A stretch of 64,000 bases of DNA, taken from positions 1,662-65,661 of the IMG/VR virus record IMGVR_UViG_3300008954_000048; one strand, written 5' to 3'. This document shows, piece after piece, positions 646 through 52,374 of this stretch. Under the pieces are notes generated by a model that was not told the origin of the DNA, made no database searches, and was given only the letters and a program-made list of their open reading frames with translations. This stretch comes from a virus (Duplodnaviria > Caudoviricetes). Both the position numbers and the translations under genes were made by a program. Position 1 is the first letter of the stretch. Each line of letters starts with the position of its first letter.

Positions 646-912
646 CTATACGCATGTGGGCCCCGAAAGGGCTTCCTTCTGCCAATTTGGATTAACAAAC
701 TCTAAATAATAAGTCCTACCAGATGGAGTAAGCTCTACAACTCTTCTTACGTTCCACCCAACATGGCGAAACTTTTGAATTGACTCGTGCATTAGTGCTT
801 CACCGAGACCAAGGGGAAATATTACCCGCTTTCCGTCCTTTATCTCTTTAATTGTCCATGAGCCTTCAAGGATATGATTTAAGGCCTCAATCAACTGGCC
901 TATATCAGTCAT
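646..912 (-). CDS. Hypothetical protein
   Basis: ORF packed into the minus-strand operon, overlapping its neighbour. Confidence 0.6.
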   Translation of the reverse strand: MTDIGQLIEALNHILEGSWTIKEIKDGKRVIFPLGLGEALMHESIQKFRHVGWNVRRVVELTPSGRTYYLEFVNPNWQKEALSGPTCV

Positions 913-1174
913 CTTTTTCTTCAGCCTCTTCCGCTTCCTTCTGCGATTTCTTGCTCCATTTATCTTTCGGCATTAGCTTTTCAACCCGAAATGATAAAAC
1001 CTTCATGCCATTGACGGTGGGTTGACCTAAGTCATCAGTGCCTATTTTCTTTACGACGGTTCGTTTATTCTTAAATCGCCCAGTAAGGATAACATCACCC
1101 TTCTCAATATCAAGGGTTATGACTTCTCTTATAAGCATACGTAATAATGCTTCTTTTTCCTTACTACTACCCAT
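905..1174 (-). CDS. Phage hypothetical protein with N-terminal LRxxIRE tag
   Basis: EALLRMLIREVI followed by a beta-rich domain (KGDVILTGRFKNK). Confidence 0.65.
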   Translation of the reverse strand: MGSSKEKEALLRMLIREVITLDIEKGDVILTGRFKNKRTVVKKIGTDDLGQPTVNGMKVLSFRVEKLMPKDKWSKKSQKEAEEAEEKDD

Positions 1175-1181
1175 GCCTAAC

Positions 1182-1526
1182 TCAAGCGCCTACCAGCGTA
1201 TCTCTGATAATTTCCATTTCTTCAGATATATCTGGTAAAAGTGCTTTTAAGTGACCCACATATTTTTTGACTTCGTTGATATTAACATCATCTCCTGATG
1301 TTGCGGCAGCTAGCTTATCGACAGCCTCCATTGCACAAACGAGAGGATCCTCCTCTAATGTTGCGCATAGACCATTTAGCTCTTCTCGAATAATCTTACG
1401 TACCCTTGACTCCACCGTTACATCAGATTCCTGCATCTCTTCCCCAGCTAATGAATCAATTATAGAGCTAGGTACGCGCTTGTTCTGTTTTTGTAGTGTG
1501 CTAAATATTTGTTTTGTTCGTCTCAT
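1182..1526 (-). CDS. Hypothetical protein with internal VESRVRKIIREEL tag
   Basis: ORF; start moved to ATG 1526 abutting the upstream stop. Confidence 0.6.
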   Translation of the reverse strand: MRRTKQIFSTLQKQNKRVPSSIIDSLAGEEMQESDVTVESRVRKIIREELNGLCATLEEDPLVCAMEAVDKLAAATSGDDVNINEVKKYVGHLKALLPDISEEMEIIRDTLVGA

Positions 1527-1527
1527 A

Positions 1528-1974
1528 TTAATACCCCGATTCTGTTTCAAGCTCCCAAGGACCATATGTCCCTGAGTCTACCATCCACCGCCTGACTTCC
1601 TCTGGAGTGTATTTATAAATGTTGGATCCGACCTGACCCATACGGTAATAGACTTCCACCGGAAGCTGTATATTGTTTCCGTTAGAGTTATCAATAACGA
1701 TGCCTCCAACCTCTACCCAGGCATGGCCATATTTTAGACCATCGATTGGGCCCTGGCCAGTTACTTCAGCATGAACAAGGACCATCTCAGCTGACCCTCG
1801 TGAGAATAATGAATTATCGACAACATAATTTGCTGCCACTTCATAACAGTTTCCGCCTGCATGATCCTGTTGTGCAGACATGGTTGCATCTAAAGATACC
1901 TCTTTAAGGCTTGTCTTTACAAACTCTCGAACTGTGCTATATCGTTCTTTATTATCCATGATTATCCTACTCAT
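1528..1974 (-). CDS. Putative transglutaminase/papain-like fold protein
   Basis: GNCYE...GHAWVE Cys-His-acid pattern. Confidence 0.5.
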   Translation of the reverse strand: MSRIIMDNKERYSTVREFVKTSLKEVSLDATMSAQQDHAGGNCYEVAANYVVDNSLFSRGSAEMVLVHAEVTGQGPIDGLKYGHAWVEVGGIVIDNSNGNNIQLPVEVYYRMGQVGSNIYKYTPEEVRRWMVDSGTYGPWELETESGY

Positions 1975-3196: not shown

Positions 3197-3274
3197 TGGT
3201 CGGCTGGCCGGGACTCGAACCCGGAACCCTCTGTTTATGAGACAGACGCTCTAACCTGATTGAGCTACCAGCCG
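3197..3274 (-). tRNA. tRNA-CAT (elongator Met or Ile2), CCA encoded
   Basis: Cloverleaf CGGCTGG...TCTGT CT CAT AA ACAGA...GGTTCGAGT...CCAGCCG ACCA; 1-72 paired, so not an initiator. Confidence 0.93.
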
Positions 3275-3472
3275 GTACATTAAACATCTTCGTAGCAATC
3301 CAATGCATGAAAATATTTGTAACTTTTTCCTTTTTTGACTACCATGTCTGGTTCTTTCATGAAGTCCTCAAGAATTAACTTCACAGTCTCTCTCTCAATT
3401 CCTGTCTCTTTAGAGATTCGATCAATCGTCTTCCACTCCAGAAATCCCACTGTGCTATTAACGGCATGCCAC

Positions 3473-3754: not shown

Positions 3755-3785
3755 GTTGCCCTCTTTCTATTAAACTATACCAATG

Positions 3786-4001
3786 CTAGATACGCTTGTA
3801 TTTTTTACCACGGCGGATAACTTCATTATTACGAGCCATTGACTCTAAGATCGAACGTGCGATACCTGGTTTAACGTCGGCATCATTAGCAATCTGATCA
3901 ATCGTTGCCCACATTTCAAATGACAACGCATTATCGATGGCCATCTGCTCACCATCAGTCCATCCACTCTTCTTACTTCGTTTGGCCATTATTCTCCTCA
4001 T
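3786..4001 (-). CDS. Small winged-helix-like protein
   Basis: ATIDQIANDADVKPGIARSILESM pattern; resembles the C-terminal part of ORF 3280..3579. Confidence 0.45.
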   Translation of the reverse strand: MRRIMAKRSKKSGWTDGEQMAIDNALSFEMWATIDQIANDADVKPGIARSILESMARNNEVIRRGKKYKRI

Positions 4002-12015: not shown

Positions 12016-12347
12016 CAGATCCCGAATTTGCCTGGGTCTATCTCATAGTTATTAAAGATTTCATCAACGCTATAGCCACCAAAAAATTCCTGAAGATCTA
12101 GGGCCGCATACTCTAAGGCGTCTTGTTGATTTGAACCTATACCGTCTAAATGCTTATCAATGTATACGTCCAATAGATCTGTAATTGCCCTATCAGCAAT
12201 CTCTTCAGCTGTCTGTACGGTGCCCTCATTAATCTTTTGTCCCTTTACTGCAGCGGCAAGCTCAGGATGGGCACGAGAACGCATAGGACTAAAGGATTCT
12301 ACTTCTTCCTTAATCAAGCTACGTAATTGTTTTCTAGATAATTTCAC
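12015..12347 (-). CDS. Putative virion internal protein (tagged)
   Basis: MKLSRKQLRSLIKEE N-terminus, KINE site. Confidence 0.6.
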   Translation of the reverse strand: MKLSRKQLRSLIKEEVESFSPMRSRAHPELAAAVKGQKINEGTVQTAEEIADRAITDLLDVYIDKHLDGIGSNQQDALEYAALDLQEFFGGYSVDEIFNNYEIDPGKFGI

Positions 12348-13253
12348 TTATCGCTCCCTACGGCCATAGGCTTTCACATTATCCCGAGTCCTTCCAATCT
12401 CATGACTACTAAGATGCCTAGCATCCTTGGCTGTCTTAGGGTCAAGGGCACTCCATGCGTCAGATAGTGCATTCTCTAAATAGTCGGCAAACTCCTTAGC
12501 CTTAGCTTTTTGTTGCTTACGAATCTCTGCATATTCTGGGCCACGAAGACCCTTAATGCCGCCACGCTTCGGGCCCCCAGCCTTCGCAGCACGCTTTGGC
12601 TTGGTTTGAACCTGGTATGTAAGATCCTGATATTCTTTTGCGAGTTGATCTAGCGTTGCATCACCCTCTAATACCGCCATCATCTGTGCTTGAATATCTC
12701 GACGTAATTCGGTTTTTAGCTGACTTAACTTCTTTTCTAGTTTATGTTGAGCGGCGCCGGCCATATTTCCTAAAATACTCTTGGCTACTCCGGCAAGCTT
12801 CACCCCGCCCCAAAGACCTGCAATACCTAATGCAACACCTGCTCCGATAGTAGCAATTGTTCCAAGTACCTCATTCATGTCATCCTCATTTAGCTCTAGT
12901 TCATCTGCTGTTAGAACGGGTTCTTCGCCATCGCCAGGATATCCCCCACCTAACTCTTCCCTAATGATTCGTCTTAACTGTGTCATTGTAATAGGCCGGC
13001 CGGCTCTTAATCTTTGGCGGGACTCTTCCATGCGTCGACGTTGTGACATTGGCGTAGATGTTATTGTAGCCTGAAGCCGTAATGCTTCGCTCTTTCGCCA
13101 GACCATAACCTGTTCTGCCTGAATTAGATCTAAATCATGCTCTGTCATGAGCATGCCCATATCAACGTCTAATAGTTCAAGTATTTCATCATCAGATAAA
13201 GGTGCATGTACCTGAGCCTTTAAGACCGCTAATTCTAAAACTTCTTTTGCCAT
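12348..13253 (-). CDS. Putative virion protein with tag and Gly-rich hydrophobic segment
   Basis: ITMTQLRRIIREEL; IATIGAGVALGIAGLWGG. Confidence 0.6.
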   Translation of the reverse strand: MAKEVLELAVLKAQVHAPLSDDEILELLDVDMGMLMTEHDLDLIQAEQVMVWRKSEALRLQATITSTPMSQRRRMEESRQRLRAGRPITMTQLRRIIREELGGGYPGDGEEPVLTADELELNEDDMNEVLGTIATIGAGVALGIAGLWGGVKLAGVAKSILGNMAGAAQHKLEKKLSQLKTELRRDIQAQMMAVLEGDATLDQLAKEYQDLTYQVQTKPKRAAKAGGPKRGGIKGLRGPEYAEIRKQQKAKAKEFADYLENALSDAWSALDPKTAKDARHLSSHEIGRTRDNVKAYGRRER

Positions 13254-30513: not shown

Positions 30514-30921
30514 CTACATGAATCCTGGGCCGCCGAAGCCTTTTTTGCCGCCGGGGCCACGTGCAGCTGCACGATTGGGATTATTGCTACGGGGACGGAA
30601 TGCATCACTTGCAAACCCCATGACTGCGCTAACGCTGCGGCTCTTTTGAGCATTTTGAAGCTGCGCAGCATCACGTGAGGCCATAACCTCATCGATAACC
30701 TGGCCAACCTCTTTGCGAATGATTTGACGAAGCTTGGCTTCCTCTACGGTGTCAGAATCCTCTGTCTCACCATCTTCTGCTTCAGCATCTGCGGTTGCAT
30801 CATCTTCTGCTTCAAAAACCTGGCTACGATTAATGCTTTCATTCAAAGCGTTGTCTCTATATTCATCTCGAGAAATCAATCCTGAGAGTCTTGCTATTCT
30901 ATCCGTATTCCAATTCATCAT
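30514..30921 (-). CDS. Putative virion internal protein (two tag types)
   Basis: DRIARLSGLI; ALNES; EEAKLRQIIRKEV; acidic linker. Confidence 0.6.
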   Translation of the reverse strand: MMNWNTDRIARLSGLISRDEYRDNALNESINRSQVFEAEDDATADAEAEDGETEDSDTVEEAKLRQIIRKEVGQVIDEVMASRDAAQLQNAQKSRSVSAVMGFASDAFRPRSNNPNRAAARGPGGKKGFGGPGFM

Positions 30922-33832: not shown

Positions 33833-34450
33833 ATGAAAATCGGTTTAGTCCCAGTATCAGCAAAGCCATACCATGCAGGCCATCATGCCCTAGTATCAAT
33901 GGCTGCAGGAGAAAATGACAAAGTTATTCTATTTGTCTCCACGTCTGATAGAAAGCGTAAAGGTCAGTTTCCTATTTTGGGTGCTGACATGGTCAAGGTC
34001 TGGCAAGAAGAACTTGAAGGTATCATGCCACCCAATGTTGAAATTGAGTACGGGGGCTCACCGGTCAGAAAAGTATGGGATGCATTAGGGACTGCTAGCG
34101 AAGATCTGGATAACCAGGACACATATGTTGTCTATTCTGATCCCGTCGATACAGCACAAAACTATCCTGAAGCTAGCCTTGAAAAATATTGTAACGACCT
34201 AAGGGCATCAGGACAGTGTGTACTTGCGGCAGAAGAAAATCCGGGAGCATTTACTCGTGGAGAAGGAACACCTAACATTAGCGGTACTGCAGTTAGGGAA
34301 ATGTTGGAAGCAGGAGACTTTCAAGGATTTGCAGCAGCAATGCCCGCGGGGGTAAACAGTCAAAATATTTTTAATATTCTTACCCAAAAAACTTCTCAAA
34401 ATGAATCCTTACTACGTAGCCTTATAAGGGAAACAATTCTATCTGGTTGA
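33833..34450 (+). CDS. HIGH-superfamily nucleotidyltransferase (cytidylyltransferase-like) with C-terminal tag
   Basis: KPYHAGH, ISGTAVRE; C-terminus QNESLLRSLIRETILSG. Confidence 0.85.
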   Translation: MKIGLVPVSAKPYHAGHHALVSMAAGENDKVILFVSTSDRKRKGQFPILGADMVKVWQEELEGIMPPNVEIEYGGSPVRKVWDALGTASEDLDNQDTYVVYSDPVDTAQNYPEASLEKYCNDLRASGQCVLAAEENPGAFTRGEGTPNISGTAVREMLEAGDFQGFAAAMPAGVNSQNIFNILTQKTSQNESLLRSLIRETILSG

Positions 34451-37339: not shown

Positions 37340-37633
37340 CTATACCGACATTGTATCGATGATGTTCCTGCGTTGGTACATCATGGTGTGGAAGGCCCTT
37401 AGTACTTTCTTTGATATTGCTATCACTGCCTTCTCATGTTCCTTACCCTTGAACTCACCTTTGATAGCTTCACTGACTATCTTTTCCACTTCCTTCTTGA
37501 AGCCGGGAGCTCTTAGCTGTTTATCAAATTGCTTACGAGCAATCTTCTCAATTTCTTTCTTATCAGTCTTTGTAAGCTCCTCGGTAAGGAGGGATTCAAT
37601 ATATCTTCTAAGAAGTTTTTTATTGCCTAACAT
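37340..37633 (-). CDS. Putative virion internal protein (tagged)
   Basis: KKLLRRYIESLLTEE. Confidence 0.6.
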   Translation of the reverse strand: MLGNKKLLRRYIESLLTEELTKTDKKEIEKIARKQFDKQLRAPGFKKEVEKIVSEAIKGEFKGKEHEKAVIAISKKVLRAFHTMMYQRRNIIDTMSV

Positions 37634-37648
37634 TTGTGATATATCCTT

Positions 37649-38803
37649 TTATGCTATACATTTTCCTGCCAATGTGAGTACGTCTTCAGGGTCGTCGAGG
37701 CTAAAGGTGGATTTAGGGATTTGATTATAGTTCAAACTAAGTGTAGCTCGAAGAACCATATTTCTCGAATTCATAATCTGAACCTTTATTGTCGGCGTCG
37801 GTAATGAAGCAATTGCATCACTAAAGCTTAAAGTTTCCAACCCTAATGGATTATTACCTATATGATATAGACCCTTATTCAAAATTTGAATATACTCAGC
37901 TTTCTTTTCAAGATAATAATCCACAAGAATATTTGGTGTAATTTCTATCTTGGGTGCGCTTTGACTAATGAGGGTTTTTCTCTTTATAATACGGTATTGA
38001 TCTATTGACATTTGTGTTGAGAATATACCACCTCGGAATCCTTTACCATTGTTAATATATTTTGCCCATCCATCATTTAACTTATTCATCCATGCTCTAA
38101 TTCCAGGATCATTAAAGCGTATTGCCCTATTAAGAAGCCTCGAAATCATTAATGCATTTTTCTTAGACCTTGACGCTTTGGATGGGCTAAACGGATACAT
38201 TTTTGCATTATATGAATAGCGTAGCGTCGGCTCCCCAAACTTTCCACCCTTCGCTTTAAGTTCAAATCCAAGTTCTCCTTGGCATGTTGCTACAACATCA
38301 GTATATCTTGGATCTGTTCCCTGTATTACGGTGATCCCCGCGGACTGGAGTACCTTTACCGTATCCTCTTCATACTTGTATCCACCACCACGTTGGCCGC
38401 CTGCGGCGAGGGCGGCAAAAATAATGTTCTTTGTCTGAACCTCTCCGTTCTGGTCAGTGCCTGAAACCTCATATGTATTATATGTTCCTGAAATATTCAT
38501 GCTCATATTTTGTACGGTGACGGTCGCCGGGTCTAAGTTAAAAACAGTAGTAACAAGGTCTTTTGCTTTTGTTTTAAGTTCCGTATCGCTTTGGCTATGT
38601 GTGTCTTTAGTATGAATCCGAAAGTGTGCAGGAACCCCAGATTTAGTACCAACACCCGTATATTTTACCCCACTAGGGGTTTTAATATCTTTAATTCCCA
38701 CCTGTGGAGCAGTAGCTTGAATTAAGCGAGCATCTGATGCCCCTGATTCTGTTAAGAGTAACTCCCGAATCCATTCTCGTAACAACTTCTCACTCATCAT
38801 CAT
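37649..38803 (-). CDS. PD-(D/E)XK nuclease-like protein with N-terminal tag
   Basis: SEKLLREWIRELLLTES; GYKYE...TDV...FELK; YIQI..GLY..NPLGL. Confidence 0.65.
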   Translation of the reverse strand: MMMSEKLLREWIRELLLTESGASDARLIQATAPQVGIKDIKTPSGVKYTGVGTKSGVPAHFRIHTKDTHSQSDTELKTKAKDLVTTVFNLDPATVTVQNMSMNISGTYNTYEVSGTDQNGEVQTKNIIFAALAAGGQRGGGYKYEEDTVKVLQSAGITVIQGTDPRYTDVVATCQGELGFELKAKGGKFGEPTLRYSYNAKMYPFSPSKASRSKKNALMISRLLNRAIRFNDPGIRAWMNKLNDGWAKYINNGKGFRGGIFSTQMSIDQYRIIKRKTLISQSAPKIEITPNILVDYYLEKKAEYIQILNKGLYHIGNNPLGLETLSFSDAIASLPTPTIKVQIMNSRNMVLRATLSLNYNQIPKSTFSLDDPEDVLTLAGKCIA

Positions 38804-39621
38804 ATTCCTATTAAGAAACTTAGATCTGCCTCGAGATCAACCGTTGATGGTGATAAACCAGATAAGACTAGCCCATTATTCCATGAGATTGATGATCGTT
38901 TATTAGCAACCTTAGGATCTGCTGCCTTTTCAGGATCTGCACTATGGTAAGCAGTTACACCTGCACTTGACCCACCCCACTTAAGCCGAGACCTAACCTG
39001 GACCTTGGCAGGAGCAAACTGCGGAACGCCTAATCCTAATGGGTCTGAGTCTAGATAGTAGAACCCATATCCTTCCCCTACCTGGATATAGTGTACACCC
39101 TTTTGGATATAGTTTGCATAGATCGCATCGGGTGTTACATCCACCTTCATTAATTCAAAGGAAAAATCTGGATTCTCATTTCGAAAATCCCAATACTCTT
39201 GATTAGTTACGGACATTGGAAGCTTAGGCGACCCAAAATATGCCATAAACTCTTCCATATGCTCCTGAACCCCGGGGCCACTAAGGATGAAATCATCAAT
39301 CAAGCCTATATCATCGTAGAACTCAGTAATAGCGTCTGTTGATCCCCAATTCCACTTTCCTCCACCATGATACCTGCAATTCTTTTGACCCGCAAATACG
39401 TTTGGACTTAGCTTTGCTTCAATTCCATGTTCTCTACCAGATGAATCAATAAATACCAGGTCTGCGCCATGGCCAGCACCTGCTGTTGCCTGTGATGGTC
39501 CGAGATCAGCAGATGCTAGCATTGCCTGTAGCTTGGCCTCATACTCAAATCCGCCCTTGGCAAATGCCATTTCCGAAAGTAGTTTTTCTCTAATCCATTC
39601 TCTTAATAGTTGTTCTTTCAT
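38800..39621 (-). CDS. PD-(D/E)XK nuclease-like protein with N-terminal tag (paralog of previous)
   Basis: KEQLLREWIREKLLSE; GFEYE...ADL...IEAK; YIQV..GFY..DPLGL. Confidence 0.65.
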   Translation of the reverse strand: MKEQLLREWIREKLLSEMAFAKGGFEYEAKLQAMLASADLGPSQATAGAGHGADLVFIDSSGREHGIEAKLSPNVFAGQKNCRYHGGGKWNWGSTDAITEFYDDIGLIDDFILSGPGVQEHMEEFMAYFGSPKLPMSVTNQEYWDFRNENPDFSFELMKVDVTPDAIYANYIQKGVHYIQVGEGYGFYYLDSDPLGLGVPQFAPAKVQVRSRLKWGGSSAGVTAYHSADPEKAADPKVANKRSSISWNNGLVLSGLSPSTVDLEADLSFLIGI

Positions 39622-39622: not shown

Positions 39623-40900
39623 TCAGCCTGCCATTATCGCCATTCTTACATAAGTACGTAAGAGCGACTCATTTTTATCTGGTTTTGGTGCCGACATTCT
39701 TGAAGCCCGGCCTACAATCTGGTTATTCATAGCAAAAGTGCCTGTTAGCTTATATAGTACCCTACTGCCTGGTGGGTGTTCGAATACAACCCCTTCCATA
39801 TCGGATGCAACATTCTCGATATCACCGAGTTTCCCTAGTTGCTTATCCAATAATGCAGCAGCAGCCTCAGCATTTTCCTCTGGTACATTTTGAAGTGCAA
39901 CGATAGCACTTTGAAGTTGCTCTTTCATCCTGGCAATCTCAGCATCATGATCACTAACAAAAAATGATTCCAGACCTTTAAGCACTTCAATTGCAAAATC
40001 ACTGATGGCCTTCTCTATAGGGCCTACTGCACGAGATATTGCGCCGTAGCGATTAGTTGTGGTAGCTATAGCACTAATAGACTTTCGAACGTCCTTAGGC
40101 ACCATCTTCTTTAAAGCATTAACATTTTTGGCACCCTCTTTTCCGAGGATCGTCTTTAATACTTCTTCTTGTTGGTCAACGGGGATTGGTAAATCACCAA
40201 CAGGGCCAGTCCTTAAACGTTCAGCAACATAATCACCAATAGTAGCATCATCACTCATTCCTGTTATGGAATCAAGCTCAGCAGCAAAATCACTATATGC
40301 AGACCCATCTGAAATGTCATTTAATTCCACTAGCTTTGGGCCGGACATTTGCCAGCCCTCTTCATCCATTTCACCTTCGGCTGTCTCTACAGCAGAGACC
40401 AATGAAGAGAATGCACCACCGGATTCGATGGTCTTCTTACCTTCTTCATCGAATTGGTGCATGTTATGTAAGACAATCCAGTCACCACTGTACACGATAA
40501 TGTTGGGATTCTTTGTATACATGATCTCGGCATTGATATAGTTCTGGCCATGATCACCAAAGATTTCTTGTAGCTGTTCAGGGCTAAGCTTGCCCATGGC
40601 TCGCTCTACAGCATGGAACCCATTCATAAATGCCTTAGCAACATTAGGGTTCGGATGGGCAGCCCATTTGGAGGCATACTCATCAGGTGACATTCCGCCC
40701 TTTTTGATATCACCGTCGTTTCGCGCGGTGCGGATCTGGCCCACACTAGCATCCCATGTAAAGAATACATTTTGGCCGTCGACCTTTTCAATAACATCAA
40801 TGTTAGCTGTTGCTACATCTGATAATATCGATTTGATCTCGCCAAACGTAAAATCTAAATTTTCATGAAGGTGACTTAAATGTCCTGCGACTCCGCCCAT
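39623..40900 (-). CDS. Ligase-like nucleotidyltransferase fold protein (DUF6267-like) with C-terminal tag
   Basis: MGGVAGHLSHLHE, EKVDGQN (KxDG), EGVVF, YKLTG; C-terminus KNESLLRTYVRMAIMAG. Confidence 0.7.
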   Translation of the reverse strand: MGGVAGHLSHLHENLDFTFGEIKSILSDVATANIDVIEKVDGQNVFFTWDASVGQIRTARNDGDIKKGGMSPDEYASKWAAHPNPNVAKAFMNGFHAVERAMGKLSPEQLQEIFGDHGQNYINAEIMYTKNPNIIVYSGDWIVLHNMHQFDEEGKKTIESGGAFSSLVSAVETAEGEMDEEGWQMSGPKLVELNDISDGSAYSDFAAELDSITGMSDDATIGDYVAERLRTGPVGDLPIPVDQQEEVLKTILGKEGAKNVNALKKMVPKDVRKSISAIATTTNRYGAISRAVGPIEKAISDFAIEVLKGLESFFVSDHDAEIARMKEQLQSAIVALQNVPEENAEAAAALLDKQLGKLGDIENVASDMEGVVFEHPPGSRVLYKLTGTFAMNNQIVGRASRMSAPKPDKNESLLRTYVRMAIMAG

Positions 40901-40971: not shown

Positions 40972-41277
40972 CTAATCTTCTTCAGTTAACATTTCTTCCT
41001 GCTGCATCTTATCAAATTCTTTGAGTGCAGCACGTTTCTGGCGGCGTAATACATTCAATACACCATTATAATGACCGCGTGAATCTGACCTGCTTGGACA
41101 TGTATCCCGAACCCATACTGCATCTGCTATACGAGCCCCAATATCATCTACACAAGACTGGCAGCCGAACTGGACCATGTTTCCACCCAACGTTTTATAT
41201 GATGCATCACCAGACATTTCACGGAGCATTTCCCTGACTAGCGTTTTTACATACAGCCTTTCGCTTAATTCACTCAT
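40972..41277 (-). CDS. Hypothetical protein (tagged)
   Basis: LSERLYVKTLVREMLRE. Confidence 0.55.
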   Translation of the reverse strand: MSELSERLYVKTLVREMLREMSGDASYKTLGGNMVQFGCQSCVDDIGARIADAVWVRDTCPSRSDSRGHYNGVLNVLRRQKRAALKEFDKMQQEEMLTEED

Positions 41278-43043: not shown

Positions 43044-44309
43044 TTACTCCATGGCTTTTTCATGGGCATCCCAGTCAATCTTTGGATCATCTTCTTTTTG
43101 CCCTGCTTGAAACTTTGCAGTTGATGTTAATGCTTGCTCTAATGCCTTTTGCCGGCGACCTTTACTCTGCTTGCCCCATTTATCTTTTGCAACATCCAGA
43201 ATGTCAACATCAAGCTTCGCTAATTTAGAGAGCTTAGGCATTTCCGCATTTGCGAGCCTGGCTAGTGCCGTAGCTGTTTTATCTGGGTCGTCATCTGTAA
43301 CTTCACCCTTCTCAATAAGTTCTTTATAATCCTTATTAATCTTTTTTGCTAGCTTCTCTTGACTACGAGGCGTTTCACCTAAGGCTTGATTTAAGACAGT
43401 TTGGCGTGATCTCTGAGGTAGGTTCATTTTATCAATTTCTGTGCTAATGGCATCAACTGATCTTTTCTTAATAACCCTCATTGCCGGCCTCAAAATATGT
43501 GCCGTAAAGAAAAACCTATATGAATCTAACTTCTTAACAGCATCTGGGGATTGCTGGAGTTCTACAGCATCTTCTTCGTCTATATAATCACCAGCGAGCA
43601 TTCCATCAATGAACTCAGCTGCTGCAAAGTCTCGTAACTCTTCTACATCGTTATGAGGTACGTCATCAATCATATATCTCATCTGTGCTAGCCATCGTTC
43701 GCTTGCTTGACGCATTTGTGTAATGGAGCCTGTCCCTTCCTGATCTGCAAGGTCCTCAAGGCTCATTCCATCAGGGGTATTATCGATAGGTTCAACTTCG
43801 TCCTCACCCGGATCCCAATCATGTACCGATAACTCTTCTTCAGCATATCTTGGAACGTCCCAATTAGATATTGCCTCAATCATTGTCCGCACTTGTCGGC
43901 GAACACTTTCTTCAGTTACTTCTTCCTCAGATGGCTCTTTATTTTCAGGATGATTATGTTCCCCCATTGCATCATCATATAATCTAAGCATATCCCTATA
44001 AAATGCCGCAACTTGATCGCCAGGTATCATTCTTGCAATCTGGTCGGCGGCCCGGGCAAGTTCTTTTGGATTTTCTGGAATAAAATCCTCATCTTCAATA
44101 GGCGGCCTATCATCTGCTAGTTGTGTAGCCATCATTTCAGTTGGCTCAATAGGCACCTCACTCGGAACAGTTGATTCCGTCTCGGGTGTTTCGTTATCTG
44201 CCGAATCTGGGCCGGGTTGATCATACATCCCATACCTTATATTTTCACGTTCAAAAAGAACACCATTCAAAAACTTTCTTAGCGCTGTACGCTTAACTGA
44301 AACACTCAT
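43044..44309 (-). CDS. Putative virion internal protein (tagged twice)
   Basis: RTALRKFLNGVLFE; VTEESVRRQVRTMIE. Confidence 0.65.
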   Translation of the reverse strand: MSVSVKRTALRKFLNGVLFERENIRYGMYDQPGPDSADNETPETESTVPSEVPIEPTEMMATQLADDRPPIEDEDFIPENPKELARAADQIARMIPGDQVAAFYRDMLRLYDDAMGEHNHPENKEPSEEEVTEESVRRQVRTMIEAISNWDVPRYAEEELSVHDWDPGEDEVEPIDNTPDGMSLEDLADQEGTGSITQMRQASERWLAQMRYMIDDVPHNDVEELRDFAAAEFIDGMLAGDYIDEEDAVELQQSPDAVKKLDSYRFFFTAHILRPAMRVIKKRSVDAISTEIDKMNLPQRSRQTVLNQALGETPRSQEKLAKKINKDYKELIEKGEVTDDDPDKTATALARLANAEMPKLSKLAKLDVDILDVAKDKWGKQSKGRRQKALEQALTSTAKFQAGQKEDDPKIDWDAHEKAME

Positions 44310-44349: not shown

Positions 44350-45060
44350 TTAAACACCGCCCAATAATATTTTCATATGGGCCTTTTCACACCCGCCTAT
44401 ACCACGGCAATACCAACCTTCATGATCTGGACCATATCGGTTTGCATATTTTTCTTCTGGGTGCCTACCAACCCAATCCACCTTCTTGCCAGTTAGGGCT
44501 TCAACTTCTTCCTTGCTGGTTACTGCCGGTACACCATAGCGTGTTATCATAACATGTGCTATCTTTCCAGACATCTCGGCGATGTCACCACTCTTAAGAC
44601 CTTCGGCAGTCTTATCCAGGTACATTTTAATTGCAGCTTCACTACCATCATGGCCAACTATCCCCATCTTCATCCTTCCGCCGCGCATCTTCCCTCCGCG
44701 GAAATAATCAGGCTCAGGATCACCATCAATCTCAGCAGCCTTCATAACTGTGTATCCGGCTGGAAGGTCGGATGGGCTCTGGACCTTTATGTTACCAAAT
44801 TTCCCATCACCTAGCGGGACTTCACCATAAGCATTTTGGATTAGATCAAATATTTCATCATCTAAATCACGTTCCTCAGGACAGGGAGGTTCTACACAAT
44901 CTTCATCATCGAAATCCTCAGGAAAAATTGGAATAGCCTTCCCTATTGGTGCATTAAAATCTGCCCATTTTTTTTCTATCAGCATACGTGCACGGTGTGC
45001 CTCAAGCTCTTCTTGAATAATGCGTCTTAACTTAGACTCTGAAATTGATTTACGTTTCAT
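44350..45060 (-). CDS. Tagged hypothetical enzyme-like protein
   Basis: ISESKLRRIIQEEL..MLIE followed by a globular domain. Confidence 0.65.
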   Translation of the reverse strand: MKRKSISESKLRRIIQEELEAHRARMLIEKKWADFNAPIGKAIPIFPEDFDDEDCVEPPCPEERDLDDEIFDLIQNAYGEVPLGDGKFGNIKVQSPSDLPAGYTVMKAAEIDGDPEPDYFRGGKMRGGRMKMGIVGHDGSEAAIKMYLDKTAEGLKSGDIAEMSGKIAHVMITRYGVPAVTSKEEVEALTGKKVDWVGRHPEEKYANRYGPDHEGWYCRGIGGCEKAHMKILLGGV

Positions 45061-45665: not shown

Positions 45666-46625
45666 TCACTTGATTAGTCCAGCTAATCGTTGCCAGTTCT
45701 CTATAATCACATCATCATTAGACCGATATGATTCTTCCGTTTTTTCTTCTTTGGCATAAGGCTCATTAAGGTCAACTTTTCCTTGTTGAAGTAACTCAAT
45801 TGCCTGCTGCAGGTGACCTTTGCCCTTACTAATTACAGGCATATCAGGTCTCTCTGGGAACCCGCCAGGGACTGATAACGTTAGTTGAGATACGTTTTCG
45901 CCCATTTTCTTTGCTGCTGCAGAAACGGCAGCATCACCCTCTTCATCGGTCCATTCTTCACATGCTGCTTGACACTGATCAGCATCGGCGCCCCAAAAGC
46001 CGGCTTTGACTAAAGCCTGAAGCTGTTCTAAGATTCCAGCCTCATTGAACTGGTCAAATCCTCCACTGCCTTCTTTACCTGAGGTTATGCCCAGTTTCAC
46101 AGTAATCATATTTAAGGCTGCAATCATCTCTTTAGCAGGAAAATCGACAATATAGCCCCCTACTGAGGCTGATGGGTCTATCATACCAGTTGCTATCCAC
46201 CGGTGGTGGCCATCCATGATGTGGCCGTCGCTAGTAATAATAGCACCTAAGTCACCACCTGGGCCTGTTGGAAATGGTTTAACCTTTAGAATTGCACAGA
46301 TTGCAAATTGGCATGCCTTTTCAATGTTCATTGATGACTGAGAAGGCTTTAGGTTACTTACAGCAATGTCCCCTGCCTTTGCACCCACCTTATCATCATC
46401 TGCATCACCGTCGTCGTCGCCACCAGTTGCCAAAAGTTCTGCCTCATCACCAGCTTTAGTAGCTGCCTTGCTAAGAGGCATTGGAAAGCGATCCGAGTCA
46501 ACCTTGGTTGGATCTGCATCCTCAAAAAGAACGTCTGCTAGACTAGGTTTACGCTTTCGTTTGCTCACTTTATTTTGAAGCACTTCCCGAATCGCCTTAC
46601 GCAATTGTGTTTCATTCTTAATCAT
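45666..46625 (-). CDS. ParB/Srx-like domain protein tagged at both ends
   Basis: LKPSQ, IMDGHHRW; N-term NETQLRKAIREVL; C-term ENWQRLAGLIK. Confidence 0.75.
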   Translation of the reverse strand: MIKNETQLRKAIREVLQNKVSKRKRKPSLADVLFEDADPTKVDSDRFPMPLSKAATKAGDEAELLATGGDDDGDADDDKVGAKAGDIAVSNLKPSQSSMNIEKACQFAICAILKVKPFPTGPGGDLGAIITSDGHIMDGHHRWIATGMIDPSASVGGYIVDFPAKEMIAALNMITVKLGITSGKEGSGGFDQFNEAGILEQLQALVKAGFWGADADQCQAACEEWTDEEGDAAVSAAAKKMGENVSQLTLSVPGGFPERPDMPVISKGKGHLQQAIELLQQGKVDLNEPYAKEEKTEESYRSNDDVIIENWQRLAGLIK

Positions 46626-48228: not shown

Positions 48229-48905
48229 TATGCGCCACCATCAGCTGCCATTGACCCTATCGCCTGAGGGGCTGGGGGTGTTGATTCATCATCTGCGGCG
48301 CGTTGTGTTGCACCAACATATTTGTCATACGTTGAATCCATCATCTCTTCAAAATATGTAGTAGTTTCTTGATCATATTTGTCAAGGAGGTAATCCTTTG
48401 CTTTATTTATAATCAGCGCTTCCATATCTAGTAAACTATCATAATTGTCAATAAGGCGACTAACGTCGCCAGCAAAACTAGCAATATCAATGTTGGTTGA
48501 CCCAACCCAATTGGGGGCGGCGGCGGCAGAAGCTTCTTCTTCAAATAACATATCTGCCAAAGGTCGTTTATGCCACTCAACTTCAATTTCGACATCAGGT
48601 GCCACCCGCAGTGTATTATCTGCTGCAACTGTTGCTGATTTCATTGCCTTCGTTTCAAAGTCAATAAGATAAGCTAAGATCTGATCATCAGCAGATCTGC
48701 TTAGCGTAGCTTGTTCTTCTGGACTTACATAAATGTCATCTTCAGGCTCTTCCTCTTCTGCCGGTGCATCCTCACCTCCTTCATCAGCAGCTTCTTCGCC
48801 CTCTTCTTCGGTTGCTTCTTCGCCCTCTTCTTCAGGCTCGGCCTCAAGAAGTAGATCAAACTCTTCTAAAATCAGCTTTTTCAAATGTTTTTTTGTCAAG
48901 CGCAT
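48228..48905 (-). CDS. Acidic putative scaffold/internal head protein (tagged)
   Basis: MRLTKKHLKKLILEEFDLLLE; Glu-rich linker; LADMLFEE. Confidence 0.65.
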   Translation of the reverse strand: MRLTKKHLKKLILEEFDLLLEAEPEEEGEEATEEEGEEAADEGGEDAPAEEEEPEDDIYVSPEEQATLSRSADDQILAYLIDFETKAMKSATVAADNTLRVAPDVEIEVEWHKRPLADMLFEEEASAAAAPNWVGSTNIDIASFAGDVSRLIDNYDSLLDMEALIINKAKDYLLDKYDQETTTYFEEMMDSTYDKYVGATQRAADDESTPPAPQAIGSMAADGGA

Positions 48906-49475: not shown

Positions 49476-50203
49476 GAGCTCATCACCTTGGCAATTTTCT
49501 CGGCTTTCTTAACACGTTTTTCAATAACATCCCAATCAAGCTCTTTCATCATAGCCCTAATATAGGTTTTTCTATCATTAAGATAATCCCTATAGTAAGA
49601 TGTTTCAGAACAATCAAGAACAATTACAGGATATGATGATAGCGGTGCATTATTGGCCGCCAAGTCTACAACCACATTTACATAGCGGTTTAACCAAGAA
49701 TTATAGACTGTCATAGCCCAGCCGCTACGAGATGATAGTGCACATGCGATAAAATCTTTCTGCCAATCATCAAACGTTCCAAAATCTCTTTCAAGGCGCA
49801 TAAATGCCAGAGAATCCATTGCCAATCGACTTTGCATATCACTGATATTTTCAAAAAACATGCCGTGAAGAAATGCTGCATTTAGATTATATGACTCATC
49901 TACCTTAAGGTTTCGAAACTCAGAATGATTTGCATTAACATCCGACCTGTCCGTAGCATCCAGCTTGGCACTAACTTCATTTAGTGAAGCAATGTGGTGC
50001 TCCATTACTTCAAGGTGTGCTGTCTTATTCTTATTACTAAGAAGCTCTGTTTGAAGATTGAACTTCTTTCCTTGTGTGACGTAAGCTTCTTGAAGAACCT
50101 TTTTTGCCTCTTCGGCAGAGAGCTTATCCGGGGACATACCCAGGGACTCCCTAATGGTTCGAACTAGTTCCTCGCGTGTCAATGCAGATTTATTTGATGC
50201 CAT
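49472..50203 (-). CDS. Fe/Mn superoxide dismutase homolog, degenerate metal site, N-terminal tag
   Basis: LHGMFF, RDFGTFDDW..F, SGWA, VLDCSETSYYRDY (canonical DVWEHAYY); LTREELVRTIRESL. Confidence 0.75.
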   Translation of the reverse strand: MASNKSALTREELVRTIRESLGMSPDKLSAEEAKKVLQEAYVTQGKKFNLQTELLSNKNKTAHLEVMEHHIASLNEVSAKLDATDRSDVNANHSEFRNLKVDESYNLNAAFLHGMFFENISDMQSRLAMDSLAFMRLERDFGTFDDWQKDFIACALSSRSGWAMTVYNSWLNRYVNVVVDLAANNAPLSSYPVIVLDCSETSYYRDYLNDRKTYIRAMMKELDWDVIEKRVKKAEKIAKVMSS

Positions 50204-50204
50204 G

Positions 50205-50579
50205 TTATTTAACCTCATATTCCTTTTCGAACTCTTCCTGATCAACTATAAATATCTCATCATCTGCAGAATCCTGATTCTTAAGCTTATATCTATCAGG
50301 TGCCTGAGCTGCTAATGGATCACCGGTTGCAGGTGGTTCAACTCGTGGTTCTTCCGGAAGATTCAATGTAACCTCAAGATCACCAGACTCTGGGTCTTCC
50401 TCTACATTATCTACCGTATATTCATATTGTGTATCTTTATGACGTACTTTAAGATCCTTTCCGACGATCATATTTCCCCTATCGTCGACCATATCGGATT
50501 CATCCAAGACCTCTGTTAGTCTTTTTTTGTACTCATCTCTCATCATTCGGATAATATCACCCTCGGTTAACATACTCAT
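50205..50579 (-). CDS. Tagged hypothetical protein
   Basis: MLTEGDIIRMMRDEY..RLTE. Confidence 0.6.
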   Translation of the reverse strand: MSMLTEGDIIRMMRDEYKKRLTEVLDESDMVDDRGNMIVGKDLKVRHKDTQYEYTVDNVEEDPESGDLEVTLNLPEEPRVEPPATGDPLAAQAPDRYKLKNQDSADDEIFIVDQEEFEKEYEVK

Positions 50580-50580
50580 A

Positions 50581-52374
50581 TTAGTACCCCTTAATTCCTG
50601 CTGCGCGCATCCATCGATGTCTTACCAGTTCATCTGTAGACCAGTCCGTATTATGATCAGCCATTGGGTCTGAAAATTCATCTTGAGGAGGTGTATCTAG
50701 ATTTACTATACGTTCTGTCAACAATTGTGCATCGCGTTGTGAAAATCCTTCTTCAAAAATATCTTTGCCAACTGCTTTATTCATTGCTAGTCTAAATGCC
50801 CGACGTGATCTTGTAGCCTTACCACCCTCGCCGGCGATGTCAGGGAAACTCTTAAGAAGCCTGGCAAGCTTCAATTTATCAAATGGGATACTCCCCAGTG
50901 CCTGTTCTGCTTTGTCAGCCATTTCATCAGCAGCCTCAATATCTTCTGGGGAAAGTTCTGCATCTTCACCTGTTAGCTCTTCATCTTCTGTTTCTCCGCC
51001 GGTGGTGATGTCTGTTACAATTTCATCTTCCATAGCATCATTAATACCTTGGGCCACCTGTGTAAGAACAGCATTTTTGTCAACATCATCACCTAAATCG
51101 TCCGCGCCACTCATTTTAACCAAGTCTTCAAATCCAATTTCTTCATTTAATAAAGACATAAGGGAAAATGAATGCATGGATCGGCGTTGAAAAGATTCTT
51201 CAAAAACGACACCCTTGCCTGAAAGAACTTGCTTAAAGCCATCAACCTTGCCGAGGTTCTGTAGGATCTTTTGTGCAGATGCACCATCATCAGTAACATC
51301 AAGGACTGCCTTTGCAATATCTTTCCATTGTTTACCTGCTGCCTCAGCATCATCTAGATTAGCCTCATCGGCAAGATCTTCTAGAGCATCTTCCGGGGCA
51401 ACGTCACCGGCCTCGACTGCAGCATCAACAGCCTCGACTGCATCTGATCCATCTTTGACCCCTGCACCAGTTAGCTTCTTAAGAAAATCTGGATAGTTGT
51501 CTTCAATATACTGCATAAGATCAAAGTTTGGACGTTTTTGGGCTTCCCCTGGAGATGCTACTTTTCCGCCCTCCTCTTCAGCGGCGCCTGAAAGGTCATC
51601 CTCCATTCCGGCCATGGCTTCACCGGCTGCCTCGGCGCCTTTATCACCTTTGGCGTCGGCCTTCTTTACCTCAGCGACCATTCCTGCCAGTTCTTCAAGC
51701 GATAGTCCCAACATATCTTCAGTAAAAACTGATTTGTCGAGCTCTTTCCCCATTTTGCCCTTAAACCACCCCACAATTTTACCAAAAAGACCTTTTGACT
51801 CCTTTGATGGAACATATGAACGCTCGATACCTGTGCGTAGGGTTTTCTCATCAGGAAAATCCCCACGTTCATCTTCACCCATTGCCGCAAGATCTTTAAG
51901 CGATTTTTGTATTATTTCAGGTTTTTGCTCTTTTGCAAATGTTGTCTTCGATAACTGACCACCGAGAAGTGCAACAGAGTTAGCAAAAGAGTCTCTAGCT
52001 TTTTGAATCTGAGTCATGGCAGCAGAAGCGGTTTGTGCACGCTTCTTCATTGTTTTTGTATCACCCTTGATTGCTAGTTTTACCATTTCACCATTATCGG
52101 GCAGCTCAGCAACTAGTTCCTGGAAGTACTTTTTAACATTTTCCATTTTTGTGCCTGGCATGCTGCCAGCAAGGGCCTCTAAGCCTGCACGAGTTTGCTT
52201 CACCGCGGAGTCTAGTTTTTCTGCTTCATCTTCACTAACATCCTCAGTTAGCAAAAAACTCATAGAGCCATGACCTAATGACTCCTCAAGTGTAGTAAGA
52301 CGATTTAGCTTATTAGAAGCTTCAATCATCATGAAGATATTTCGAAAATCCTGTTTTGTTGGACGAGTTAGCAT
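50581..52374 (-). CDS. Large acidic helical putative internal head protein
   Basis: Multiple LLTE/LLNE sites; C-terminal RWMRAAGI. Confidence 0.7.
   Translation of the reverse strand: MLTRPTKQDFRNIFMMIEASNKLNRLTTLEESLGHGSMSFLLTEDVSEDEAEKLDSAVKQTRAGLEALAGSMPGTKMENVKKYFQELVAELPDNGEMVKLAIKGDTKTMKKRAQTASAAMTQIQKARDSFANSVALLGGQLSKTTFAKEQKPEIIQKSLKDLAAMGEDERGDFPDEKTLRTGIERSYVPSKESKGLFGKIVGWFKGKMGKELDKSVFTEDMLGLSLEELAGMVAEVKKADAKGDKGAEAAGEAMAGMEDDLSGAAEEEGGKVASPGEAQKRPNFDLMQYIEDNYPDFLKKLTGAGVKDGSDAVEAVDAAVEAGDVAPEDALEDLADEANLDDAEAAGKQWKDIAKAVLDVTDDGASAQKILQNLGKVDGFKQVLSGKGVVFEESFQRRSMHSFSLMSLLNEEIGFEDLVKMSGADDLGDDVDKNAVLTQVAQGINDAMEDEIVTDITTGGETEDEELTGEDAELSPEDIEAADEMADKAEQALGSIPFDKLKLARLLKSFPDIAGEGGKATRSRRAFRLAMNKAVGKDIFEEGFSQRDAQLLTERIVNLDTPPQDEFSDPMADHNTDWSTDELVRHRWMRAAGIKGY

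Follow-up and report, generated by a model that had tools for sequence, protein, structure and literature searches.

A recurrent helical peptide as a candidate head-targeting label on diverse proteins of a giant T4-like phage

The stretch of DNA analysed here (the window; 64,000 nucleotides) belongs to a 65.6-kb record, IMG/VR IMGVR_UViG_3300008954_000048, which covers an estimated 21% or so of the roughly 300-kb genome of a giant uncultured marine T4-like phage. Many of its proteins carry a helix of about 15 residues, hereafter the tag, composed of an S/T/N-E cap followed by L-R-x-hydrophobic-I-(R/K)-E-E-hydrophobic. A second, W-type motif is found on some of them. The sites are as follows, with proteins named by the first coordinate of their reading frame and scores derived from the motif matrix described below.

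1124..1147, minus strand: N-terminal tag core of 905-1174, 89 aa (17.0 bits)
1383..1406, minus strand: internal tag core of 1182-1565, near residue 41 when counted from the likely start (20.3 bits)
12306..12329, minus strand: N-terminal tag core of 12015-12347, 110 aa (20.5 bits)
12957..12980, minus strand: tag core, internal, residues 92-99 of 301, in 12348-13253 (22.6 bits)
30712..30735, minus strand: tag core, internal in 30514-30993 (12.5 bits)
30874..30915, minus strand: W-type motif of 30514-30993, at what is probably its true N-terminus (start Met25, AGGAG ahead)
33444..33467, minus strand: N-terminal tag core of 32241-33512, 423 aa, then M-L-F-E (12.5 bits)
34409..34432, plus strand: C-terminal tag core of 33833-34450, a nucleotidyltransferase, residues 193-200 of 205 (18.4 bits; checked)
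37592..37615, minus strand: N-terminal tag core of 37340-37633, 97 aa, then L-L-T-E (13.7 bits)
38762..38785, minus strand: tag core, residues 7-14, N-terminus of the 384-aa protein 37649-38803, then L-L-T-E (22.6 bits; translation checked)
39586..39609, minus strand: tag core, residues 5-12, N-terminus of the 273-aa protein 38800-39621 (21.7 bits)
39641..39664, minus strand: borderline C-terminal tag of 39623-40900, an RNA-ligase-like protein, residues 413-420 of 425 (11.5 bits)
41218..41241, minus strand: tag core, N-terminus of the 101-aa protein 40972-41277 (13.5 bits)
43884..43907, minus strand: weak internal match in 43044-44309, not counted as a tag (9.3 bits)
45010..45033, minus strand: tag core, N-terminus of the 236-aa protein 44350-45060 (20.7 bits)
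45669..45701, minus strand: second tag, C-terminal W-x-R-L-A-G-L of the ParB-like 45666, a motif as in the scaffold's invariant C-terminus
46521..46541, minus strand: L-A-D-V-L-F-E, candidate protease site where the leader of 45666 meets the mature domain (E35 and A37 invariant)
46584..46607, minus strand: tag core, residues 7-14, N-terminus of the 319-aa ParB/Srx-like protein 45666-46625 (20.0 bits)
48540..48560, minus strand: L-A-D-M-L-F-E, candidate cleavage site, residues 116-122 of 48228-48905, after a long acidic stretch
48864..48887, minus strand: borderline N-terminal tag of 48228-48905, an acidic protein of 225 aa (10.0 bits)
50144..50167, minus strand: off-register match in the SOD-like 49472-50245, not counted as a tag (3.0 bits)
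50584..50619, minus strand: W-type motif at the C-terminus of 50581-52374, an acidic protein of 597 aa

The matrix was trained solely on 39 N-terminal instances in other phage records, none from the source record, and was run over the record's 107 proteins, with 50 shuffles that keep each protein's composition providing the expectation. At 12 bits or more, 15 proteins match against 0.64 expected (11 against 0.12 at 14 bits or more, 19 against 2.24 at 10 bits or more); 13 of the 15 lie inside the window and two in the 1661 bases of contig preceding it. The simpler pattern [LV]R..[ILV]RE is found nine times in the 104 window proteins (19,244 aa), compared with a mean of 0.14 and a maximum of 3 in 2000 within-protein shuffles, and six of these matches fall within the first 30 residues, where 0.02 are expected. 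A motif scan against shuffled controls had been named in advance by an earlier note on this DNA, and the helix that it described is present far above chance. Twelve of its 16 examples are strong (905, 1182, 12015, 12348, 30514, 32241, 33833, 37340, 37649, 38800, 44350 and 45666), 39623 and 48228 are borderline, and 43044 and 49472 fall away; it had missed 40972, and its total of about 20 proteins was an overcount, 13-15 being right. The same note called the helix amphipathic, which is not established, as the hydrophobic moment is higher than in 95% of a tag's own shuffles for only 1 of the 13 strong window tags and unremarkable for the other 12. Its statement that replication and metabolic enzymes lack the helix agrees with the counts (1 of the 23 window proteins with a Pfam match above cut-off vs 12 of the 81 others), but the contrast is not significant (Fisher p = 0.29).

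Nine of the 13 strong window tags are N-terminal (L before R at residue 6-17), three are internal (1182, 12348 and 30514) and one is C-terminal (33833). For 12348, a GGAGG ribosome site precedes the first ATG of the reading frame and none is found at the Met beside the tag, while the likely start of 1182 lies just past an upstream stop codon. The consensus has a high content of K, I, E, L and R, and the majority of copies directly follow the start codon. The conserved Arg is encoded by CGT (7), AGA (4), CGA (2), CGG (1) and AGG (1), and the mean pairwise nucleotide identity of the tag cores is 0.48; since the codons swap between CGN and AGR, the constraint acts on the protein. The carriers are generally unrelated otherwise, as had been claimed, with the exception of one pair of paralogs, 37649 and 38800 (BLASTP 8.9e-6 outside the tag, and also phmmer).

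The tag is portable across families. Among 1830 unique ORFs of the window and its relatives, it is N-terminal in 109, C-terminal in 15 and internal in 24, against 5, 0 and 5 in one shuffle of the set; the matrix for this count included its own 50 seed instances, and the counts include homologs and are therefore not independent events. Once the tag is removed, the tagged ORFs fall into 75 families. Within enzyme families the tag comes and goes: of 135 nucleotidyltransferase representatives (at least 165 aa), 14 have the C-terminal tag helix and many end without it, and two large fusions are tagged at the N-terminus instead. In structure models, tags appear as add-on helices outside the folded domains, separate (pLDDT about 46-55), on linkers below 50 that join them to cores above 85-90. 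AF2 places helix 5-18 of 45666 on a linker with pLDDT below 50 and helix 304-318, containing its C-terminal W motif, behind a disordered linker, and helix 410-424 of 39623 (pLDDT about 46-53) behind a weak linker; the Atlas structural matches of 38800 begin at residue 19/21, leaving the tag out. The tag may have a structural role in fusions, because in 662-689-aa fusions of RNA-ligase-like and nucleotidyltransferase domains a tag-like helix forms the interdomain linker.

Among the carriers, 33833 is a nucleotidyltransferase. The nuclease label is a weak lead: 38800 may be restriction-endonuclease-like, with an R.HinP1I-like lead at 0.90. The ParB-like label of 45666 comes from weak fold matches, which suggest a ParB/Srx-like protein with D-G-H-H-R, and the nearest folds of 39623, in which K-x-D-G is present, are RNA ligases (E 2e-3). 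Homologs of 39623 keep the C-terminal tail, and the ortholog of 44350 in the relative G001 has a tag with a different spelling. In the ParB-like family, the leader up to the hydrophobic-x-E-[DEKQ]-A boundary is kept in 115/115 full-length homologs, and E35 and A37 at this boundary are invariant in 34/34 sequences.

A second portable tag, overlooked in the earlier note, consists of a C-terminal R-W-x-x-L-A-G-(L/I), the same as the invariant end of the lineage's scaffold protein, whose C-terminal R..LAG is found in 23/23 sequences and is its most conserved part. Outside the scaffold, this ending is shared by the ParB-like protein, by an acidic protein of 597-677 aa and, in L029 and L030, by a kinase-like protein. 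Orthologs of 50581-52374 in G001 and G002 (677 aa) retain the motif. In the ParB-like family, the C-terminal W motif is absent in 13/13 members with a W-type N-leader and present in 98/102 without one.

No head gene (protease, capsid, portal or scaffold) was found in the 65.6-kb source record, which is silence rather than absence because the record holds an estimated 21% of the genome. Window genes 27296-57987 are collinear with the relatives L007-L012, of which L011 and L012 are contained in G001 and G002, and these syntenic relatives have a T4-type portal, capsid protein and gp21-family prohead protease (in G001 and G002, Portal_T4 at 1.5e-77, Gp23 at 1.3e-75 and Peptidase_S77 at 5.9e-27); terminase and sheath also occur in the lineage. 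In G001, the head module occupies 87-98 kb, tens of kb from the orthologs of the tagged block (20-34 kb and 0.6-7 kb), and gene neighbourhood therefore lends no support in this sub-lineage, in contrast to L001, L003, L030 and L032, where it does. The T4 late-promoter octamer was not enriched (7 observed vs 4.3).

The link to head assembly comes from the relatives, in which the tag helix occurs at the N-terminus of the protease, on a small core protein beside it and inside the N-domain of the scaffold. In a MAFFT alignment, the T4 gp23 cleavage site (E65, after F-L-T-E), which is known from experiment, shares its column with the (I/L/V)-L-(R/K)-E of the lineage's capsid protein, to which the tag's hydrophobic-(R/K)-E core corresponds. 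The first 10 residues of T4 gp24, its propeptide, likewise end in L-L-R-E, resembling the tag core. Hydrophobic-x-E sites number 1.57 per 30 aa behind the tag vs 0.55 elsewhere in the same 80 proteins, homologs included and hence not independent events, and at least one occurs in 90% vs 44% of windows. The L/I-x-E-type sites reported to follow the tag are likewise in excess ([LIVM]L[TSL]E, 15 vs 5.4 expected, a number reached in 1/1000 shuffles), and the near-identical LADVLFE and LADMLFE are indeed found in two genes (D[LIVM]LFE, 2 observed vs 0.07).

Judged from sequence, the tag is most likely an address label that brings its carriers into the virus head and is removed afterwards, and we think it fairly probable that it corresponds, in this lineage, to the capsid targeting sequence (CTS) of T4. 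In the proposed model, for which we infer core binding, cleavage, packaging and ejection, the helix would dock its carrier on the scaffolding core of the assembling prohead; Peptidase_S77, a T4-type serine protease, would cut after Glu, both within the hydrophobic-(R/K)-E core and at downstream hydrophobic-x-E sites; and the mature protein would remain in the head, probably leaving with the DNA at infection. The R-W-x-x-L-A-G-(L/I) peptide, copied from the scaffold's end, would serve as a parallel address. The head-packaging reading of the earlier note is partly supported: the comparative evidence (T4-type head genes, the helix on protease, core protein and scaffold, the cleavage column and the likeness to the gp24 propeptide), the add-on character of the helix and its coming and going within enzyme families favour it, but the record itself has no head gene and the tagged genes lie far from the head module.

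T4 internal proteins attach to the core through the CTS and gp21 removes propeptides (PMC5694885; PMC3012670); a 10-residue CTS is enough for loading, with residues 4 and 7 for targeting and 8 and 10 for processing, Alt undergoes C-terminal cleavage as well, and L-I-E-9 is present in gp21 (PMC9026906). The leaders of IPI, IPII, IPIII and Alt and the N-terminal piece of gp24 resemble the tag in being short, N-terminal, on unrelated proteins and ending in hydrophobic-x-Glu; homologs of gp20, gp21 and gp23 in the lineage and the C-terminal processing of Alt are further parallels. Unlike the IPII/IPIII decamer, to which it has no letter-by-letter likeness, the tag is longer (about 15 residues, with L-R-x-x-I-R-E), also occurs C-terminally and between modules, is paired with a candidate scaffold-derived C-terminal tag, and is found on 13-15 proteins in 65 kb and in at least 75 families over the relatives, compared with a handful in T4. 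In the giant phages phiKZ, 201phi2-1 and SPN3US, a T4-related prohead protease also trims many head and ejection proteins, and the propeptides, which have a small P3 residue (A/S-x-E) and are mostly longer than 100 residues, are believed to direct proteins to the prohead (PMC5694885); in the present lineage, by contrast, P3 is hydrophobic, leaders are mostly below 35 residues, a gp23-type capsid protein is clearly present, and a scaffold can be recognised. [quoted passage not shown] The lineage scaffold is most conserved at its C-terminus, in line with the shell-binding C-terminal end of the P22, T7 and SPP1 scaffolds, but its peptide also occurs on non-scaffold proteins as a candidate portable tag. 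To our knowledge, such reuse lies outside the textbook picture. Encapsulin cargo-loading peptides are short terminal peptides that direct diverse enzymes into an HK97-fold shell. The tag would be a similarly short terminal address on diverse enzymes, but the lineage has portal, terminase, sheath and protease rather than an encapsulin shell, and its tags appear built for removal by protease.

Rather than being cargo, the carriers could belong to the scaffolding core as expendable components, comparable to T4 gp22, gp67 and gp68; the helix would build them in, and the protease would degrade them fully, with nothing functional reaching the host. Many are small, acidic and of low complexity (48228, 43044, 50581, 12015 and 905), like T4 gp67 and gp22, the helix occurs in the scaffold and in the small protein beside the protease, and T4 core proteins end as small peptides (PMC9546572); we nevertheless regard this as unlikely, as well-folded enzyme-like carriers with invariant catalytic-type residues (ParB/Srx-like with D-G-H-H-R, RNA-ligase-like with K-x-D-G, nucleotidyltransferase and the restriction-endonuclease-like lead) are not expected of pure filler. 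A role unrelated to the capsid, in which the helix stays uncleaved and serves docking or oligomerisation at a different hub (the phage's own chaperonin, a replication/transcription factory or the membrane), would suit the distance of tagged from head genes, the internal or interdomain tags, and the GroEL and sigma-70 factor encoded in the record; it appears quite improbable to us, leaving unexplained the same helix on head protease, core protein and scaffold, the match of its core to the capsid cleavage column, the pile-up of hydrophobic-x-E sites behind it and the copying of the scaffold C-terminus by the second tag. That the tag has no common function, being a by-product of composition or first-codon translation selection (A/T-rich Lys, Ile, Glu, Leu and Arg codons) and a helix-capping habit, would fit its K, I, E, L, R-rich consensus mostly right behind the start codon and the post hoc definition of the motifs on data already seen, but is highly improbable, with the composition-keeping shuffles (0.64 vs 15 observed for the matrix, 0.14 vs 9 for the simple pattern) and the mutually exclusive swap of motif position within the ParB-like family counting strongly against it, alongside a matrix derived from other genomes, the C-terminal and internal copies and Arg codons that vary across codon families.

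Read as an address label, the system would repeat, on a larger scale and in another spelling, a device already known from phage T4.

A short helix with the core L-R-x-hydrophobic-I-(R/K)-E, hereafter the tag, recurs on unrelated proteins of the window. The pattern [LV]R..[ILV]RE occurs 9 times in 104 window proteins, against a mean of 0.14 (maximum 3) in 2000 composition-preserving shuffles, and within the first 30 residues there are 6 matches where 0.02 are expected. To avoid circularity, a position matrix was built only from 39 N-terminal instances in other phage records; scanned over the record's 107 proteins, with expectations from 50 shuffles, it gave 15 proteins of at least 12 bits (0.64 expected) and 11 of at least 14 bits (0.12 expected), which bears out the earlier note's observation that the motif recurs. 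Thirteen of these 15 proteins lie in the window, nine of them sharing the tag as a leader at the extreme N-terminus, three with an internal tag (1182, 12348 and 30514; genes are named by their start coordinate) and one with a C-terminal tag (33833). Among the 16 examples that the note had listed, 12 are strong, those at 39623 (11.5 bits) and 48228 (10.0 bits) are borderline, and those at 43044 (9.3 bits) and 49472 (3.0 bits, one residue out of register) are unsupported, while one strong case, 40972, was absent from the list. Inspection of ribosome sites suggests corrected starts at Met25 for 30514, Met15 for 49472 and Met14 for 1182, whereas for 12348 it bears out the internal position of the tag.

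The statement that the carriers otherwise share nothing holds save for the paralogs 37649 and 38800, and with this one related pair a single paralogous family is ruled out. For 37649, a pattern search for related loci gave 13 matches, none of them confirmed, and a homolog search returned only the protein itself, so that it has neither a family alignment nor a good fold. The conserved arginines are encoded by CGT, CGA, CGG, AGA and AGG, and DNA identity between cores is just 48%, so the constraint lies on the peptide and not on an RNA or DNA element; the crossing of codon families rules out a translation enhancer or a promoter inside the coding sequence. Other properties ascribed to the tag fared less well: an amphipathic nature is not demonstrated, the hydrophobic moment not exceeding that of shuffles in 12/13 tags; its rarity in annotated enzymes has the direction claimed, without significance (p = 0.29); and the T4 late-promoter octamer was uninformative, being found 7 times against 4.3 expected, a count reached by 17/100 shuffles.

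The features of the window to which the following refers are:
45666-46625: ParB/Srx-like carrier
39623-40900, minus strand: RNA-ligase-like protein
33833-34450, plus strand: nucleotidyltransferase
33833-36163: the one clear island of plus-strand genes, all else being minus-strand, holding the tagged nucleotidyltransferase
49472-50245: SOD-like protein
50581-52374: acidic 597-aa protein
45669-45701, 50584-50619 and 30874-30915 (and 9750-11240 of L088, a locus of a relative): portable R/x-W-x-x-L-A-G-(L/I) motif, at C-termini and once at an N-terminus
within 3197-15665, minus strand: eight tRNA genes (Met, Lys, Leu, Arg-tct, Ala, Pro, Gly, Thr)
2032-3162, 14964-15569, 22112-23166, 24541-25347, 27296-28942 and 42625-43038: host-like genes, encoding an IMPDH/GMP-reductase-type enzyme, MlaC, an Fe-S assembly protein, a peptide deformylase with a poly-Lys tail, sigma-70, GroEL and a pterin-4a-carbinolamine dehydratase

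AlphaFold2 models made with family alignments have confident cores in the ParB-like protein (residues 40-289) and in most of the RNA-ligase-like protein, with the tags predicted as separate helices (pLDDT about 46-55) behind linkers below 50. Fold searches were weak but consistent, pointing to a possible ParB-N, Noc or sulfiredoxin likeness for the ParB-like family (best E 0.04) and to RNA ligases for the 39623 family (best E 2e-3), which has no match in the PDB by sequence at E up to 1; the family alignments contain invariant D-G-H-H-R and K-x-D-G motifs. Atlas models resembling 38800 align only from residue 19-21 onwards, and the restriction-endonuclease family of R.HinP1I is a tentative lead for this protein. 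The C-terminal helix of the nucleotidyltransferase family is optional, being present in 14/135 representatives. In the SOD-like protein, which probably starts at Met15, Pfam recognises the C-terminal Fe/Mn-SOD domain alone (7.8e-18), and the NCBIfam score of 92 bits falls short of the cut-off of 300. In the window, separate genes on opposite strands encode the RNA-ligase-like protein and the nucleotidyltransferase; in some metagenomic relatives (e.g. P0156, P0167 and P0179) they are fused into proteins of 662-689 aa in which a tag-like helix forms the linker, which hints at one pathway, perhaps RNA repair. The plus-strand island also encodes a 354-aa protein that is hydrophobic at its N-terminus, matches VWA weakly and ends in an Asp/Gly-rich tail.

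The virus record comprises 65,661 bases, of which the window covers 64 kb, and nearly all window genes are on the minus strand. CheckV estimates the record to be about 21% complete, which implies a genome of about 300 kb; in line with this size, relatives of the tagged families are found on contigs approaching 300 kb (297,894 bases for the contig of locus L076; up to 288 kb for protein contigs). By Pfam, the record encodes replication proteins (DNA polymerase III alpha, ATP-dependent ligase, flap endonuclease and DHH phosphoesterase), nucleotide enzymes (thymidylate synthase, thymidine kinase, deaminase and an IMPDH/GMP-reductase-type enzyme) and host-like proteins (GroEL, sigma-70, peptide deformylase, MlaC and Fe-S assembly). 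Two called ORFs, 14065-14262 and 14696-15124, overlap tRNA genes and are probably spurious. Capsid, portal, terminase and protease genes were not found by Pfam in the record, including a Peptidase_S77 prohead protease in these 65.6 kb at about 21% completeness, and PHROGs and Pfam gave no structural family for the window's unknown proteins. Searches of GenBank phages gave no close relative by DNA and only weak partial matches with the ParB-like protein as query.

Metagenomes contain 580 relatives of the ParB-like carrier, and ocean surveys are the source of several; in the IMG/VR collection, relatives were confirmed at 198 of 244 pattern-matched stretches, 80 of which were kept as the loci set. 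In many of these loci the ParB-like gene lies inside a head module composed of terminase, portal (phrog_213), head maturation protease (phrog_207), a small protein, an acidic scaffold-like protein of 350-690 aa and the major head protein (phrog_138), followed by the sheath. Six loci (L007-L012) are collinear with the window from gene 27296 to 57987, and the records of two of them, G001 (119 kb) and G002 (126 kb), were read whole. Both encode Peptidase_S77 (5.9e-27), Gp23 (1.3e-75) and Portal_T4 (1.5e-77), about 55 kb away from the orthologs of the window's tagged block. Peptidase_S77 is present in 3/5 related records searched, including both of these, the other two being 25-26% complete. The nearest named relatives of the capsid protein are those of the far-T4 phages Microcystis phage Mel-JY01, Flavobacterium phage immuto and Rhodothermus phage RM378. 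Given collinear relatives with T4-type head genes, the window is a piece of a giant marine T4-type phage, whose own head genes are off the fragment. IMG/VR lists G002 (126.6 kb) as a provirus, which may be an error, since its T4-type modules are the same and look lytic.

The tag reaches the head module itself. In many relatives the head protease opens with the same helix followed by hydrophobic-L-T-E. The helix also begins an adjoining protein of 81-104 aa, and the conserved N-domain of the scaffold contains it as well. Among 1830 unique ORFs, 109 N-terminal, 15 C-terminal and 24 internal tags were counted against 5, 0 and 5 in one shuffle, with a matrix that included its own 50 seeds and with homologs inflating the counts; once the tags are removed, 75 families can be told apart among the carriers. 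In both G001 and G002, four to six different proteins in a row begin with almost the same tag, and there are also large proteins with a tag between modules.

In T4, internal proteins join the core via a short capsid-targeting leader, the CTS, which gp21 then removes (PMC5694885 and PMC3012670). According to a review, ten residues suffice, with positions 4 and 7 for targeting and 8 and 10 (hydrophobic and Glu) for processing, and Asp in place of the Glu is reported to abolish processing while leaving targeting intact; Alt undergoes C-terminal trimming as well, gp21 carries L-I-E-9 close to its own beginning, and the CTS has already been suggested as a means for T4-like phages to load various proteins (PMC9026906). 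In the T4 genome (NC_000866), gp24 begins with a 10-residue piece ending L-L-R-E, IPII and IPIII have a common decamer ending I-A-E, and residue 65 of gp23 is the Glu of F-L-T-E. In a MAFFT alignment, this gp23 site shares its column with (I/L/V)-L-(R/K)-E in 16/16 lineage capsid proteins and with V-S-E in that of immuto, so the maturation site predicted for the lineage and the tag core I-(R/K)-E are alike in form. Judged by its residues, the leader appears to end in a protease site, with a hydrophobic P3 and Glu at P1. In a set of 80 tagged proteins, the density of hydrophobic-x-E over the 30 residues that follow the tag is about threefold that in the rest of the protein, and the follow-on sites reported in the window are there in moderate excess ([LIVM]L[TSL]E, 15 against 5.4; hydrophobic-hydrophobic-F-E, 8 against 3.6), as is the LADVLFE/LADMLFE type (D[LIVM]LFE, 2 against 0.07). 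Across the aligned ParB-like family, leaders differ in both length and sequence until an invariant Glu and Ala, a boundary present in 115/115 full-length homologs, beyond which the mature domain is highly conserved.

Compared with the tag matrix, the T4 leaders of NC_000866 showed no letter-level likeness to the IPII/IPIII decamer, the T4 CTS and the tag having in common only an M-K start and a hydrophobic-x-E end. Propeptides of phiKZ and SPN3US have a small P3 (A/S-x-E) and mostly exceed 100 residues (PMC5694885), whereas P3 is I, L or V here and most leaders are shorter than 35 residues. An encapsulin-type system would be a shell without portal, tail or protease, and the relatives have Portal_T4, terminase, sheath and S77 protease.

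There is also a second portable peptide. W-x-(R/K)-(L/A)-A-G-(L/I) closes both the ParB-like protein and the acidic 597-aa one, and 30514 begins with a motif resembling it. The lineage's scaffold has an invariant C-terminal end identical to this motif, with R486, L490, A491 and G492 unchanged in 23/23 aligned sequences, and the scaffold of the cultured phage immuto carries the same motif at its C-terminus, spelled R-W-Q-K-L-A-G. R-W-x-x-L-A-G is present on 98/115 full-length ParB-like proteins: on 98/102 members with an ordinary leader and on 0/13 whose N-terminal leader is itself of the W type. This mutual exclusivity (13/13 against 98/102) indicates one W-type peptide per ParB-like protein, at either end, and is hard to explain unless the peptide is a functional, position-independent module. 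No published description of a scaffold-mimic tag was found in the literature. In immuto (MW353176), the scaffold is annotated as a "DNA polymerase phi-like protein", and two adjacent genes (L106:2730-3731 and L106:3731-4030), one annotated as a cob(I)alamin adenosyltransferase, have a common N-terminal leader of about 25 residues with a different spelling.

The explanation that we favour, with somewhat better than even chances, is close to the head-packaging signal proposed in the earlier note: a system of capsid-targeting propeptides like that of T4 but spelled in its own way, present on many more proteins than in T4 and joined by a scaffold-derived C-terminal tag, for which we infer a binding partner, cleavage, packaging and ejection. 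Counted against it are the lack of head genes on the fragment, a sub-lineage without gene-neighbourhood support, tags that are internal or act as linkers, and the missing letter-level likeness to the T4 decamer. A complex prediction that paired the scaffold (496 aa) with residues 1-45 of the ParB-like family, run without controls, gave a score of 0.00 (mark, 0.32) and speaks neither for nor against binding. The carriers might instead be disposable parts of the core rather than cargo, an unlikely reading that the helix on the small protein and the scaffold favours and the enzyme-like folds oppose. Somewhat less probable still is that the helix is a docking module for another hub, a reading that the internal and linker tags favour but that does not explain the hydrophobic-x-E sites behind the tag. 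That the tag is a compositional by-product is very improbable in view of the shuffles.

Beyond the capsid-targeting reading, it is conceivable, though we hold it only tentatively, that marine far-T4 giant phages run a two-letter, position-independent address code that loads a tenth or more of the proteome into the head for delivery before gene expression. The first letter would be the CTS-like helix, derived from the N-termini of protease and core, and the second the peptide copied from the scaffold's C-terminus, which would attach to the shell or the core in the manner of an encapsulin cargo peptide. The load would include the RNA-ligase-like enzyme, the nucleotidyltransferase, the ParB/Srx-like protein and the restriction-endonuclease-like proteins, and a single scaffold-type peptide, no more and no fewer, would be required per cargo, whichever end it occupies, as the mutually exclusive W motifs of the ParB-like family suggest.

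The principle of loading by a tag is known from T4, and the T4 CTS is already in use for packaging foreign proteins in phage capsids; the tag described here differs in spelling and is carried by many more proteins, and no published description of the helix tag was found in the literature. If the reading is correct, it would provide new short loading peptides for such packaging and an annotation handle blind to function, whereby a tag marks a virion-internal and probably injected protein, and many 'hypothetical' genes would become candidates for factors of counter-defence or takeover that act early. Phages abundant in the ocean would then owe much to loading their heads with changeable cargo, a major trait open to expansion rather than a T4 curiosity; the ParB-like carrier alone has the 580 metagenomic relatives mentioned above.
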